Shown here piece by piece: positions 4,363 to 55,365 of a stretch of 64,000 bases of DNA. The DNA is taken from IMG/VR virus record IMGVR_UViG_3300008108_000036; one strand, 5' to 3'. The notes under the pieces are model-generated. The model worked only from the letters and a program-made list of their open reading frames with translations, was not told the DNA's origin and searched no databases. This DNA comes from a virus. The first letter of the stretch is position 1. Every line of letters begins with the position of its first letter. Both the position numbers and the translations under genes were made by a program.

Positions 4363-4626
4363 TTACTTTTTTCTGCGTTTTTTTCTGCTTTTTTTCATTC
4401 CATAACGAGTTATTACTCCTCCGTATATACCATAAGGAATTCTAGCATCATCTTTGGCGTAATTGTCACCACTAAAAGCTGTAGATGTTGAATCTATTCC
4501 ATCGCCAAACGACGAACTTGTTGCACCCCCCTCAGAATCCTCATTAATGCTGTTCGTTTTGGTATAACAATCGTTCGATATAAAAGAAAGAGCTGCATTA
4601 TACGCTTCTTTAAAGCTTTTTGTCAT
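4363..4626 (-). CDS. Small late protein, possible head protein
   Basis: Minus-strand TAAATA at 4633-4638; SFKE...INE leader; basic C-terminus. Confidence 0.6.
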   Translation of the reverse strand: MTKSFKEAYNAALSFISNDCYTKTNSINEDSEGGATSSSFGDGIDSTSTAFSGDNYAKDDARIPYGIYGGVITRYGMKKSRKKRRKK

Positions 4627-4771: not shown

Positions 4772-5299
4772 CTAATACCAAGACGGCTTAGAGCGCTTTG
4801 TCCAAGTTGCAAAAGCTTTATCTAACCGAATGTATTGTTTGTATTTGTCTATAGTAGAAAGTTGATCAAAACCAGCAATTTTTCTGCACTTAGATTCTAA
4901 GTTAATAGCGATTGCAAAGGGAGTCAATTCGCTTTTTTTACAATGCTCTGTTTTATCTACATTGCTTTTGCACCATTCTATAAATGATTTGGTAAAATGC
5001 TCGTTAGAAGTTGTCCATCGATAGGTTCGCTCATTAAACATTTCTAAAGCATGATCACAAAGCCACAAAAAGTTTGATGTTGACTCTCTTGTCCATACAG
5101 CACATGGATGATTGTAATACCCTTTGCCAGATTTACGTGGGGATCCTTTTTTAGTCAAAGGAGCTGACAGTAATGTTTGATTAGAAAAGCAATGTTGAAG
5201 CAAAATTGCTGATTCAATTTGCATTTTAGACCTACAATGCTGATCACAAAGCTCTTGAGCTGATATCACTGGATCGTTATTGGTGCAAAAGATATTCAT
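4772..5299 (-). CDS. Pyrimidine-dimer DNA glycosylase/endonuclease V-family protein
   Basis: MNIF..DP..SAQ.LCD.H..KM..ESA, NHPCAVW, YKQY..K..FATW. Confidence 0.75.
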   Translation of the reverse strand: MNIFCTNNDPVISAQELCDQHCRSKMQIESAILLQHCFSNQTLLSAPLTKKGSPRKSGKGYYNHPCAVWTRESTSNFLWLCDHALEMFNERTYRWTTSNEHFTKSFIEWCKSNVDKTEHCKKSELTPFAIAINLESKCRKIAGFDQLSTIDKYKQYIRLDKAFATWTKRSKPSWY

Positions 5300-5342
5300 T
5301 GGCTAAAGTTTCAAACTAAAAATTAAAAAAGACAACAAAATG

Positions 5343-5370
5343 TTGCTTTTTTTAAAAAATAACATAATTT
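5343..5370 (+). promoter_or_regulatory. Early-type promoter driving the non-coding structured segment
   Basis: TTGCTT(5343-5348)-N16-TAATTT(5365-5370); same geometry as the other promoters. Confidence 0.5.
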
Positions 5371-5376
5371 AAAACA

Positions 5377-5702
5377 GTCGCTGTTAGTGCCAGCCAAAGC
5401 GTTTCAACGCGGGTCTTCGTTGGGAGATAAATAAACAGGAGTCAGCGATTAATAAATAAAAACACTACTCGATGTGCGCTTTATGCGTGACCGTTGTTTG
5501 GCCATTGCCAGGACCGCTCAAGCCAGCCCTTACAGAACAACCGAGGGGGCATATTTTTTGCTTTGCAAAATTTTGAAGCTTGTTAACCCGACTGAGACTC
5601 GTTTTATACGGAATTTCAAAGACAGGAGGTTATCCCAATAATGGGGGACCTCCCTCCTTCAATCTGAATAACCGGAACTTAAAGACCTTTTAAGCCTTTT
5701 TT
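5377..5702 (+). ncRNA. Unclassified structured non-coding RNA candidate (~330 nt)
   Basis: No long ORF; GC-richer than flanks; stems GTCGCTG/CAGCGAT, GCGT-TTCA-ACGC, GTTGTTT/GAACAAC, TGGC-CATT-GCCA, TTTGAA/TTCAAA, GGAGGT..TCCCA-ATAA-TGGGG..ACCTCC; ends in a T-run. Confidence 0.6.
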
Positions 5703-5741
5703 GCTGTTGAATAACCTATTTTGACGTATATCATTAACGAT

Positions 5742-6149
5742 ATGGCTGATGCATCTAATCTTTTTCAAGAATATCATGAAAAAATTGAGACGTTTTTGAA
5801 ATTTGATGAATTAAACATTAAAGACTCACAAATGGCACTACCATCCGTTAGACATTATTGGGTAGGTCGGCTAATGTATCACAAACAACAAATTATAAAA
5901 CTCAAAAAAGCAAAAGAAAAAGCAAGCAAAACCATTAAAGCAAAATTAGAAGAAGAATCGCCAGTTACTCTCAGCATTAAAACTATCAGCGAATCCATAG
6001 CAACGAATGAAATTATCTTAAAAATTGATGATGAAATAGCAAATAACGAGTTTTTGGTAGAATATCTCAGCAAGGTCGAAGCTAACTTTAGAGACACTCA
6101 ATACGGAATGACTAATCTTACTAAAATAATTACATTAGAAACGACATGA
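5742..6149 (+). CDS. uvsY: Recombination mediator UvsY-like (start probably ATG 5742)
   Basis: Helical ~135 aa protein upstream of uvsW as in T4-like phages; promoter TTGAAT-N16-TATCAT at 5707-5734. Confidence 0.65.
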   Translation: MADASNLFQEYHEKIETFLKFDELNIKDSQMALPSVRHYWVGRLMYHKQQIIKLKKAKEKASKTIKAKLEEESPVTLSIKTISESIATNEIILKIDDEIANNEFLVEYLSKVEANFRDTQYGMTNLTKIITLETT

Positions 6150-6580: not shown

Positions 6581-8020
6581 ATGAATATAACATTTGATTT
6601 TGATACAGTTTCCAGAAAACCTAAAATCATATCCGAATTTTTGCCTCAAATTAGAGAGCATTTTTCAGTAGAAGACAAAGCTTTATTATTTTTAAGAAAA
6701 AGAACTGGCAGAAACTTACCCGTAAGAAAATATGCTATTACAAATAAAGGAATGTATGATTTGCCTTTTACTGGAACTATTTGTCAAGAACTTAAGTCAA
6801 AATTTCCTTCTGCTAAAATCCATTTTACTGATGAGCTAGTAATCCGATTATCAAATAAAAGTATAAACGAAGAGTTAGTCACACTCAACTTTCCACCTAG
6901 AGATTATCAAAAATCTTCTGCCGAAACAGCATTACAAAAAGGAAGAGGGGTGGTAGTTCTTCCAACTTCAGCAGGCAAAACACTTGTAATTGCTTTAATA
7001 ACTTCAACCATTTTAAAACACAGTAGTGATAACGTACTAATTTTAGTTCCAGACATTCAATTAGTTCAACAAACATACAAAGATTTTTTAGAATACGGAA
7101 TTGACGATTCGTTGATTTCTAGATGGACTGGCTCTCATGAATTTACTAACTCAAAAATAGTAATAGCAAACAATCAAATACTTTTATCAGAAAAACAAGA
7201 CCAAAACGTTCTTTCATCGTTTTCGACGATTATTGTTGATGAGTGTCACAAATTCGCTACAGCTGAAAAAATTTCAAAGCTTATTAAGAATTTGAAGTGT
7301 GAAAGAATATTTGGATTTACAGGTTCTTTGCCAGAATCGAAATTTGACGTTTGGTCTATAAACAGAATTTTTGGTTCTATTATCTTTCATAAGAAATCTA
7401 TAGATCTTAGACAGGATAAATATATTTCAAAAGTGCGAGTAGTTTCTTTAGAGCTTAACTATAAAGACATACCACAGTTTTCAAAACCATCCGTTAACGA
7501 CCCAACAGCAGGATATGAAGAAGAAATCACATGGCTTCATACCAACTTGTACAGAAATTCTATAATATCGAAACTAATAAATAAACTTGAAACTAACACT
7601 TTAATATTGGTTGACCGTATAGTACACGGAGAGCATCTTTTGCAGTTTTTACAAGATCACACTAATAAAGAAATATATTTTATACAAGGATCTGTTGAAT
7701 TGGAAGAAAGGGAGAACATGAGAAAGCTTATGGAAGAAAAGTCTGGAGTTGTGTGCATAGCAATTTCTAAAATATTTTCTACAGGTATTTCTATTAAAAA
7801 TTTACATAATATAATATTTGCAGCAATAGGAAAAGCAAGAATTAAAATAATTCAATCAATTGGAAGAAGTTTGAGATTGCATCACACAAAAGAAATAGCC
7901 ACTATATTTGACATAGCAGACACATGCTTAATTTACGGAAAGAAGCATTTTGACGAGAGAGTTAGATTATACGAATCCGAGCGCATTCCCGTTGTTTCTT
8001 CCACGCATTATGAATCGTAA
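6581..8020 (+). CDS. uvsW: UvsW SF2 DNA/RNA-DNA helicase
   Basis: PTSAGKT, DECH, GFTGS, FSTGISIKNLHN, QSIGRSLR. Confidence 0.93.
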   Translation: MNITFDFDTVSRKPKIISEFLPQIREHFSVEDKALLFLRKRTGRNLPVRKYAITNKGMYDLPFTGTICQELKSKFPSAKIHFTDELVIRLSNKSINEELVTLNFPPRDYQKSSAETALQKGRGVVVLPTSAGKTLVIALITSTILKHSSDNVLILVPDIQLVQQTYKDFLEYGIDDSLISRWTGSHEFTNSKIVIANNQILLSEKQDQNVLSSFSTIIVDECHKFATAEKISKLIKNLKCERIFGFTGSLPESKFDVWSINRIFGSIIFHKKSIDLRQDKYISKVRVVSLELNYKDIPQFSKPSVNDPTAGYEEEITWLHTNLYRNSIISKLINKLETNTLILVDRIVHGEHLLQFLQDHTNKEIYFIQGSVELEERENMRKLMEEKSGVVCIAISKIFSTGISIKNLHNIIFAAIGKARIKIIQSIGRSLRLHHTKEIATIFDIADTCLIYGKKHFDERVRLYESERIPVVSSTHYES

Positions 8021-29379: not shown

Positions 29380-31351
<1,972 letters not shown>

Positions 31352-53931: not shown

Positions 53932-55365
53932 ATGGCTAACATCATGCACATCAATAAAGACACAGCTGAACGCCTTGTCGAAAAGTGGACACCAATTTTG
54001 GATTTCACTTCAAACAAAGTTGCTCAGATTGAAAACGAAACAACACGTTTAAACACAGCTATCCTCTTGGAAAACCAAGAAAGATGGTGCTTAAACGAAG
54101 GTAATACAGCCTCCTCCGGCGGAGTTTTTGGCACAACCAACGCAAATAGTCCTGGAGCATTTAGTGGAGACACTTATGCAAAAGGTGATGCACGTTTACC
54201 AAAAGTTCTTATCCCAATGATTCGCCGTACATTCCCAGAACTCATCACAAATGAGATCGTCGGTGTACAGCCAATGACTGGACCAGTCGGACTTGCTTTT
54301 GCAATGCGTTATAAGTATGAAGATTCCGCTCTCGGATATTCTGCTAATGGCGACGGAAACAATGGCAGCGGCTCTATTGCAGCTAATGGATCCAATGGAA
54401 AAGAAATCGGTTACAACTACCTTAACACTGCATTCACAGGTGCATCTTCAGAAGCTTTAAGCGGAAAAGATGGCGTTTGGGATAACTTTGCAGAAGATAA
54501 TGGAGTTGGAGCATTAATTTCTCAATTTGAGCTCAGCTCAAAAATTCCACAGATCACTGTTTCGTTCGAGAAAACAGCCGTTGAAGCACTAACCCGTAGG
54601 TTAGCAGCTAAATGGTCAGTTGAGCTCGAACAAGATCTTAAGAACATGAATGGTATCGATATCGATTCCGAGCTTACCAACACCATGTCATATGAAATCC
54701 AGGCTGAGATCGACCGCGAGATGATCGCTCGTATGATCCAAGTCTGCCTCAATGCTGGTGAAAACGTTGGTTATTCAACATGGTCTGCTATCTCTGCTGA
54801 CGGACGTTGGTCCGGGGAACGCGCACGCGACTTTTACAACAGAATCGTTGTAGAAGCAAACCGTGTCGCTATTCGCAACCGTCGTGGTGCCGCTAATTTC
54901 ATTATCGCCACCCCACGTATTTGCGCTATCCTCGAAACATTACCAAACTTCTCATGGCAGTCGGTTTCAGGCAATGTAAATACCGCACCAGTTGGTATTG
55001 CTAAGGTCGGTTCGATTGGTGGTCGTTTCCAAATCTATCGTGACACTCGTACAGAAGCTCAACTTAACGCAGGATACAATCCAGCAGGTAAGGGATATGC
55101 AGCTACTCGTACGAATCCAGTTGATTATGCCCTTCTTGGATACAAAGGCACAGAATACTACGACAGTGGTATCCTCTATTGCCCATACATCCCTGTAATG
55201 GTTCAACGCACGATCGGTCCAAACGACTTCTCCCCACGCGTAGGCTTGCTTACAAGATACGGTGTAGTTGATCACATCTTTGGTGCATCACTCTACTACC
55301 ACCTTGTAATTTGCAAAGGCTTGGGTCAATCATTCGTTCCTGGTCAAGCAGCAACTTATCTCTAA
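53932..55365 (+). CDS. Major capsid protein gp23
   Basis: LLENQ, IRRTFP, GVQPMTGPVGL.FAMR, ELEQDL, EIDRE, YCPYIP, TRYG; SD AAGGAG. Confidence 0.97.
   Translation: MANIMHINKDTAERLVEKWTPILDFTSNKVAQIENETTRLNTAILLENQERWCLNEGNTASSGGVFGTTNANSPGAFSGDTYAKGDARLPKVLIPMIRRTFPELITNEIVGVQPMTGPVGLAFAMRYKYEDSALGYSANGDGNNGSGSIAANGSNGKEIGYNYLNTAFTGASSEALSGKDGVWDNFAEDNGVGALISQFELSSKIPQITVSFEKTAVEALTRRLAAKWSVELEQDLKNMNGIDIDSELTNTMSYEIQAEIDREMIARMIQVCLNAGENVGYSTWSAISADGRWSGERARDFYNRIVVEANRVAIRNRRGAANFIIATPRICAILETLPNFSWQSVSGNVNTAPVGIAKVGSIGGRFQIYRDTRTEAQLNAGYNPAGKGYAATRTNPVDYALLGYKGTEYYDSGILYCPYIPVMVQRTIGPNDFSPRVGLLTRYGVVDHIFGASLYYHLVICKGLGQSFVPGQAATYL

Follow-up and report, generated by a model that had tools for sequence, protein, structure and literature searches.

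A conserved, structured RNA of about 325 nt beside the uvsY-like and uvsW genes of uncultivated T4-like phages

We analysed a 64-kb stretch of DNA (64,000 nt, hereafter the window) from the IMG/VR virus record IMGVR_UViG_3300008108_000036. In this window, a 421-nt gap without open reading frames (5300-5720) lies between a minus-strand ORF of 175 aa (4772-5299) and a plus-strand ORF of 135 aa (5742-6149). The gap is the second longest among those between ORFs of at least 90 aa, in agreement with a sequence-only reading that had ranked it among the longest intergenic stretches. That reading had also called it visibly GC-richer, and the GC content of 5376-5690 is indeed 0.45 against 0.337 for the whole window. 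This segment is the sole non-coding one of the eight GC-richest 300-nt segments. The GC-richest segments of all (0.47-0.54) lie inside ORFs of 540 aa and 477 aa (29729-31351 and 53932-55365), both of which are probably highly expressed; the 477-aa ORF is among the few genes preceded by a Shine-Dalgarno-like AAGGAG. Only seven of the 57 long ORFs have a Shine-Dalgarno-like word (GGAG, GAGG or AGGA) within 20 nt before the start, and the gene leaders in the window are A-rich. Translation initiation in the host probably proceeds largely without Shine-Dalgarno pairing, though the early promoters are of the TTGACA type.

A UvsW-like helicase is encoded at 6581-8020 (PHROG E-value 5e-75), and the other neighbours include a gp55-like late sigma factor, a NUDIX hydrolase and a SegE-type GIY-YIG protein. 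By these surrounding genes, the source genome is that of a T4-type phage. Even the best-matching deposited phages share only about 31% identity with it in UvsW and in DNA polymerase, and the phage is, on this sequence comparison, far from any cultured one. The 135-aa ORF had been named uvsY in the sequence-only reading. Its position beside uvsW fits the name, while a direct match in Pfam, PHROG or tblastn searches was not obtained. Two homologues from sister phages, 25-28% identical to it, match the Pfam UvsY family over the full length with 19-22 bits, below the cut-off of 22.8 bits. The ORF is thus only a probable uvsY, since the assignment is based on position and on sub-threshold hits of distant homologues, and we refer to it as uvsY-like.

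On the upstream side, the 175-aa ORF flanks the RNA promoter described below and occurs in the source genome only, among the loci that include this flank. It matches the Pfam family Pyr_excise (pyrimidine-dimer DNA glycosylase) weakly (E-value 0.013, below the cut-off), and phrog_624 weakly as well. A hairpin with 15-bp arms (5323-5355) comes with this insertion and overlaps the −35 element of the RNA promoter, converting TTGACA to TTGCTT. The ORF and hairpin together resemble a mobile cassette for early genes, of the promoter/stem-loop type. Further upstream, the window encodes a small protein on the minus strand (4363-4626) with a Gly/Ser-rich middle, a DNYAK..P...G.ITR.G motif and a Lys/Arg tail (KKSRKKRRKK), for which our searches found no family. 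A 67-aa homologue is found at the same place in the phage L007 (3376-3579, minus strand), which lacks the RNA. A link between the RNA and this small basic-tailed protein was therefore rejected.

We collected 36 distinct full-length copies of the gap element, and several truncated ones, from IMG/VR and from JGI, TARA and ENA metagenome contigs, using UvsW and short DNA patterns as queries. The full-length copies make up our alignment A4; among them, L064 is nearly identical to the window's own copy. The carriers are uncultivated T4-like phage contigs from freshwater, brackish and marine environments. Gene order is constant: a P-loop kinase gene on the plus strand is followed by three minus-strand genes (for a 150-aa protein, a SegE-like protein and the small Lys/Arg-tailed protein), the RNA on the plus strand, and then the plus-strand genes for the uvsY-like protein, sometimes a NUDIX hydrolase, UvsW and gp55. 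Throughout, the element occupies one strand switch, between the small basic-tailed gene (minus) and the uvsY-like, uvsW and gp55 genes (plus). The NUDIX gene between uvsY-like and uvsW exists only in some genomes (the window, L001 and L044). The element is single-copy in each genome, including a complete 217-kb relative with terminal repeats. Median nucleotide identity to the window is 81.7% for the element versus 69.6-75.1% for the flanking genes (uvsY-like, uvsW, gp55, SegE-like and kinase), which makes it better conserved than any other DNA of the neighbourhood; across all 36 copies, 109 of its 323 positions do not vary.

Insertions on either side have left the element undisturbed. In the window the 175-aa ORF was inserted upstream; in relatives a 213-aa gene, a 373-aa gene or a convergent 455-aa gene was inserted downstream. 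The spacer between the element and the uvsY-like gene is a hot spot of accessory-gene insertion in these relatives, with an ORF of about 213 aa in L021, L023, L026, L038 and L045, a 373-aa ORF in L014 and the convergent 455-aa ORF in L041.

The distribution of the element is narrow. A blastn search with the gap against 50,697 deposited phage genomes gave no match, and by this comparison the RNA is absent from cultured phages. An exact two-part pattern had zero matches in 185,579 prokaryote genomes, so that no host or prophage copy was seen there. A covariance model of the core (R1), run with filters off on the distant T4-like contigs L005-L008 and on the rest of the window, returned noise (E-values of at least 0.55). 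In L007 and L005, the junction between the small basic-tailed gene (minus) and uvsY (plus) is only 35-70 nt long and contains no RNA. Because these more distant T4-like phages keep the junction without it, the RNA is, on present sequences, a clade-specific module and not a general part of the uvsY region. Loose-pattern DNA matches in L028, L029, L031, L033, L035-L037, L039 and L040 fall inside unrelated coding regions and were set aside as chance.

Comparison of the copies indicates that this stretch is a real gene for an intricately folded non-coding RNA of about 325 nt, encoded on the plus strand (5375-5702; conserved core 5376-5677). In relatives, the length reaches about 380 nt. The copies share no ORF, their variable columns are spread evenly over the codon phases (71/67/69), and gap runs in the alignment are mostly 1 nt long. 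We tested a hand-curated structure on A4 and found that 95.8% of the cells are standard pairs. Twenty-two pairs change on both sides, compared with 10.1±1.7 in shuffled alignments (none of 500 reached 22). Double-change cells number 113, against 25.7±5.0 after shuffling, and sliding the 3' partners by 1-3 columns leaves no more than 23. In the ten helices that vary, some by G-U changes, 206 cells depart from the commonest pair and 83% of these still pair. The 199 G-U cells would become A-C mismatches on the opposite strand, which places the RNA on the plus strand. The pattern is that generally expected of a structured non-coding RNA: compensatory changes, on one strand, without a coding signal. 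Covariation among homologues upstream of uvsY, which had been suggested as a check, thus turned out to be strong. Single-sequence folding energy is no more stable than that of shuffled sequences (z-scores of −0.75 for the plus and −1.35 for the minus strand). The case for structure is therefore comparative and not thermodynamic. Several core helices never vary, since the sequences come from one fairly narrow clade.

The overall fold supported by the alignment comprises a 5' domain with three hairpins, an A-rich linker, a three-way junction of P7, P5 and P8 accompanied by the hairpins P3 and P4, the hairpin P9 and a C/U tract. In the 5' domain (5377-5449), P1 (5377-5383/5443-5449), with double changes in three pairs, encloses P2, P2a and P2b. 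P2 (5393-5395/5412-5414) also has double changes, its pair 24-46 reading GU, AU or CG, and contains the inner hairpin P2a (5399-5401/5408-5410). All four pairs of P2b (5415-5418/5423-5426) covary. In L038 and L044, the entire P1 is swapped for different complementary strands, and 8 nt of the following single-stranded linker UAAUAAAUAAAAACACUA (5450-5467), in which most A positions are invariant, are missing. The hairpin P3 (GCGC/GCGU, 5476-5479/5485-5488) has double changes in three of its four pairs and P4 (UGGC/GCCA, 5499-5502/5507-5510) in two, including GC to AU in seven copies; both are paired in 100% of the cells. In the three-way junction (5519-5582), P7 (5519-5523/5578-5582; GC to AU in four copies) encloses P5 (5526-5531/5545-5550; CG to UA in seven copies and CG to AU in two) and the variable hairpin P8 (5553-5561/5565-5573), which has six double-change pairs. 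P8 is deleted in L004, and the P2b loop is enlarged by 19 nt in L058. Peripheral loops thus accept insertion or deletion, while the junctions and the P5 loop are frozen; the swap of the whole P1, the P2b-loop insert and the loss of P8 are, as judged from the alignment, behaviour typical of peripheral elements.

Downstream of the junction, a near-invariant stretch, UUAACCCGACYGAGACUCGUUUUAUACGGA (5583-5612), leads into a variable linker, and no helix with double changes was found in 5583-5624 in A4. The hairpin P9 (GGAGGUUAUCCC/GGGGGACCUCC, 5625-5636/5642-5653) is paired in 96% of the cells, with six pairs varying on one side only, from G-U to G-C or A-U. An invariant C/U tract, ACCUCCCUCCYUC (5648-5660), overlaps its 3' strand. 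It is followed by CCGGA (5672-5676), the second of two CGGA words, the first being ACGGA (5608-5612). In L041 (8505-8823, minus strand) and L045 (23-344, plus strand), both words read AGGAG and the downstream G tract described below is missing; this replacement is a single event, in a shared 3' module. The AGGAG of these two copies is complementary to the invariant C/U tract.

Most of the helices that the sequence-only reading had drawn by eye are recovered here. Compensatory changes are seen in its GTCGCTG/CAGCGAT helix with the two enclosed hairpins, in TGGC/GCCA and in GCCCT/GGGGC. Its GGAGGT..ACCTCC hairpin fits the plus strand, with changes confined to G-U to G-C or A-U; its TTTGAA/TTCAAA pairing is not conserved among the copies and was given up. 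Three helices of our own were dropped as well: CGA/UCG around CUGAGAC (C-A mismatches in seven copies), CUG/CGG at 5664-5675 (without support) and a long-range GUGA/UCGU helix (which clashes with P3).

We then investigated the invariant positions of the core. The 13-nt loop of P5, AYAGRACAACCGA, is identical in all 36 copies. Two upstream words, CUCG (5468-5471) and GUUGU (5493-5497), are complementary to the contiguous ACAAC-CGAG of this loop. CUCG would form a helix, Pa, with CGAG (5542-5545), its four pairs being invariant in 36 of 36 copies, and GUUGU would form another, Pb, with ACAAC (5537-5541), likewise invariant. Pa and Pb are candidate pseudoknots with the supported helices P5 and P7, and pairing of the loop with both words would stack on P5. 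Both had already been drawn in the sequence-only reading, as CTCG/CGAG and GTTGTTT/GAACAAC. Alternatively, GUUGU could extend P4, and both pairings fit the sparse variation nearby.

A second feature of the core is a pair of distant pyrimidines, 5593 and 5658 (the latter inside the C/U tract), that always change together. Twenty-four copies have U/U and the other 12 have C/C, with no exception; the window, for example, has U/U and its sister L030 has C/C. Only one other pair of columns in the alignment has higher mutual information than theirs (0.92). On a tree from which these two columns were left out, about six joint changes are found, at least two of which are forced by well-supported branches. 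One possibility is the register GACUGAG/CUCCUUC (5590-5596/5654-5660), which has five conserved Watson-Crick pairs and would put 5593 and 5658 in a symmetric 2×2 pyrimidine loop stacked on P9. In the general form GACYGAG/CUCCYUC, this helix shows no Watson-Crick double changes.

We then examined the two ends of the RNA. In relatives, the −35 element reads GTTGACA, and TTGAC lies exactly 34 nt upstream of the first P1 base in 28 of the 35 copies with enough flank. A −10-like hexamer (GATATT, GACATT or TAAATT) follows 16-17 nt downstream of TTGAC. Given the fixed distance of these elements from P1, the transcript is predicted to start 1-5 nt before P1 (5377). The window's promoter (5343-5369, plus strand) has TTGCTT at −35 (5343-5348) and an ATAATT −10-like element at about 5364-5369; TTGCTT is found only in this copy, next to the genome-specific insertion. 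The sequence-only reading, which had the RNA start about 6 nt after a promoter of early geometry, is upheld by the TTGACA-type promoter of the relatives and the predicted start.

The 3' end is less sharply defined. That reading let the RNA end in a T run, and a T6 run (5697-5702) does follow a weak AU hairpin (CUUAAAG-ACC-UUUUAAG, 5678-5694), while a consensus terminator scan made no call at 5678-5702. This region is the likely 3' end or an attenuation point. A run of at least five T residues lies 20-62 nt past CCGGA in 26 of 36 copies. A G tract, AAAGGGGCGGGG, is found 25-40 nt past the core in about two thirds of the relatives; it is able to base-pair with the invariant C/U tract, and GTAGA and a T run come after it. 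The window's copy has no G tract. In L014, insertion of the 373-aa gene separates the G tract from the GTAGA/T-run motif, and no T run exists between the RNA and the next gene; the motif, like a T4-late-like TATAAATT, has remained beside uvsY. Read-through into uvsY-uvsW-gp55 is plausible, because the T-run motif of L014 travels with uvsY and not with the RNA. The sole promoter-like site before the uvsY-like gene of the window is TTGAAT-16-TATCAT (in the 5707-5742 region), which ends at 5734, 8 nt from the ATG, and would give a nearly leaderless mRNA. At nine loci, a T4-late-type TATAAAT(T/A) lies about 11-16 nt before the uvsY-like start, preceded in relatives by a conserved GT(A/G)GA and T-run motif. 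Its location ahead of the start suggests an independent promoter for the uvsY-like gene.

We also searched for known families. Scans of the whole window with the Rfam 15 covariance models, which include RNase P, tmRNA, 6S, group I and II introns, GOLLD, ROOL, HEARO, Polynucleobacter-1 and riboswitches, gave zero matches at gathering thresholds. At E-values up to 10, the region 5250-5800 returned only terminator-like chance matches at the 5320-5355 hairpin, the best with an E-value of 0.42 and 21.7 bits against a cut-off of 48 bits. Five other members gave nothing within the RNA at E-values up to 1, so that no Rfam family was matched in the six members scanned. ARAGORN found no tRNA or tmRNA in the 64-kb window. 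Consistent with these scans, the RNA lacks the hallmarks of tRNA, tmRNA and RNase P, as had been noted by eye. We found no published description of it in the literature. The suggestion of a new class of phage non-coding RNA is well borne out: the stretch is better conserved than the genes around it, its helices covary, its G-U pairs fit a single strand, its promoter keeps a constant spacing, and Rfam 15 has no match for it.

What the RNA might do has to be judged from its fold, its place and its history. Our first choice, which we regard as an even call, is a stand-alone RNA gene that acts through its fold. We prefer it because a complex fold with frozen junctions is under selection, because the module keeps its own promoter, because it has come intact through gene insertions on either side (including that of the convergent gene of L041), and because its size and complexity exceed those of known cis regulators. 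An uncertain 3' end and a next gene of the same orientation at 35 of 36 loci weigh against it. These two points speak for an alternative in which the RNA is the folded 5' part of an early transcript running into uvsY-like, uvsW and gp55, controlling read-through (by attenuation, riboswitch-like sensing or processive antitermination) or mRNA stability. The RNA indeed lies directly upstream of, and on the same strand as, the downstream block at those 35 loci, and its 3' hairpin and T run are weak or, in some copies, absent, with none before the next gene in L014. Three pairing partners are open to the C/U tract (the 5' strand of P9, the GAGGGGG of P5/Pa and the G tract before the T run), and such alternatives among G/C-U-rich pairings resemble a terminator/antiterminator choice. 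However, with some 320 nt and at least ten helices, the RNA is far above known cis regulators and has no match among the Rfam riboswitches and leaders. The adjacent downstream gene varies (uvsY-like, the 213-aa ORF, the 373-aa ORF or the convergent 455-aa ORF of L041), the late-type TATAAAT(T/A) at nine loci suggests that the uvsY-like gene has its own promoter, the window's copy lacks the G tract, and sister phages express the same block from a 35-70-nt junction without the RNA. On balance, we consider a leader function unlikely; what weight it keeps comes from the orientation that the RNA shares with the downstream genes, from its weak signals for termination and from the alternative pairings of the C/U tract.

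The location upstream of the 135-aa uvsY-like gene adjoining uvsW also recalls an origin, and the sequence-only reading had offered a structured origin-primer RNA as its other option. In T4, ori(uvsY) fires from a promoter transcript that forms an R-loop, which UvsW removes. Here, the transcript would prime or open an origin beside uvsY, as at T4 ori(uvsY)/oriF or with ColE1 RNA II, and the UvsW encoded just downstream would remove the RNA-DNA hybrid. The position is like that of oriF, with a promoter-driven transcript at a strand switch adjoining uvsY-like and uvsW. Each genome has a single copy of the RNA, and the 3' G tract of about two thirds of the members would give a stable rG:dC hybrid. 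On the other hand, T4 oriF consists of a MotA-dependent middle promoter and an AT-rich unwinding element and requires no conserved RNA fold; in a middle promoter, a MotA box (TGCTT) at −30 replaces the −35 element. The promoter here is of the TTGACA −35 type and not of the MotA-box type (TTGAC at −35 in 28 of 35 copies), and the transcribed DNA has 45% GC in a window of 34% GC. The 60 nt past the RNA are ordinary in duplex stability (41% of windows are less stable), and there are no iterons or repeats. The GC-skew check suggested with the origin idea came out against it, as the cumulative skew does not turn at the locus in the complete 217-kb relative, though T4-like phages may show no turn anyway. 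The window's copy lacks the G tract, and the junction exists in sister phages that have no RNA there. Covariation reveals selection for a folded RNA, which priming by a simple R-loop would not require. We find an origin role doubtful, and leave it a small share of our belief because the position recalls T4 oriF and many members have the G tract. Least probable by far is that the stretch works only as DNA, for instance as a site of protein binding or recombination, or that it is a protein gene that has decayed or been recoded. Long invariant runs could be protein-binding DNA, and the window's copy contains ORFs of 34-55 aa; yet eight helices show compensatory double changes, a large number of G-U pairs are meaningful for just one strand, there is no common reading frame or codon periodicity, indels are mostly 1 nt, and Pfam finds nothing in the 55-aa ORF. 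The alignment essentially excludes this explanation.

For the stand-alone RNA, we propose the following course of events. The host RNA polymerase would transcribe it early in infection from the TTGACA-type promoter, whose placement would let the transcript begin at the first helix. The P5 loop ACAACCGAG would then pair, probably, with the two invariant upstream words to form a pseudoknot, and the RNA may act through its fold on another component, as a scaffold, a decoy or a catalytic RNA. Its partner could be a protein or a nucleic acid, and it would not act as a DNA signal. The fixed place by uvsY-like, uvsW and gp55 hints that the RNA may be connected with replication, with recombination or with the early-to-late switch. 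A search of the rest of the window for targets by complementarity of at least 11 nt gave AT-rich words only. The idea that the CCUCC tract mimics an anti-Shine-Dalgarno sequence is unsupported, as only seven of 57 phage genes have a Shine-Dalgarno-like word. A bolder version, and a long shot, is a pseudoknotted RNA machine, either a ribozyme or a subunit of an early-infection ribonucleoprotein, working on replication or recombination intermediates or on the host polymerase. Two features would be read in this light: a third of the positions are frozen across phages with proteins that are only 65-78% identical, and the joint changes of 5593/5658 would point to a core resembling an active site or to two contacts gripping the partner.

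Comparison with known systems helps to place the RNA. T4 ori(uvsY)/oriF is alike in having a promoter-driven transcript by uvsY and uvsW at a transcription-unit boundary of a T4-type genome; the RNA here differs in its TTGACA promoter, GC-rich DNA and selected fold, and shows no unwinding element or skew. In ColE1, the fold of RNA II decides whether a persistent RNA-DNA hybrid forms. ColE1/pMB1 RNA II resembles our RNA as a molecule of several hundred nucleotides whose secondary structure matters, and the G-rich segment of many members could anchor a hybrid in a similar way. It differs in that here there is no antisense partner of the RNA I type and no sequence or Rfam relation, the window's copy has no G tract, and a replication role is putative. 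Whatever its role, the RNA adjoins genes for recombination-dependent replication and late transcription in a lineage of ~200-kb T4-like phages that are common in lakes, and thus bears on origin organisation in T4-type phages outside the enterobacterial model. The 36-sequence alignment, the tested secondary structure and the specific frozen elements make the RNA directly accessible to experiment.

Among viral RNAs, the IMG/VR structured-RNA catalogue published in 2023 (PMC10690425) describes DNAVirus_N motifs of 29-151 nt. These share with our RNA the intergenic IMG/VR source and the covariation evidence (PMC10690425), and the ~325-nt RNA differs from them in length. As the motifs do not exceed 151 nt, the catalogue could contain fragments of the RNA at most. 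On the sequence evidence, we rate the RNA as a new family of a kind already known, the large structured RNAs of phages with a puzzling function. To our knowledge, few bacterial or phage RNAs above 300 nt with many helices and frozen junctions have been described. Such large RNAs with an understood function are mostly ribozymes or ribonucleoprotein cores, while GOLLD, ROOL, OLE and raiA are long-standing puzzles. GOLLD and ROOL, which belong to the large 'ornate' RNAs, are often carried by phages and prophages. Like our RNA, GOLLD (RF01998) and ROOL (RF03087) are large, multi-helix, phage-encoded non-coding RNAs known mainly from metagenomes, and they bear pseudoknots, those of our RNA being candidates. 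They are two to three times longer, and their covariance models do not match it. To these large structured RNAs, the family adds a compact, single-copy and promoter-defined example.
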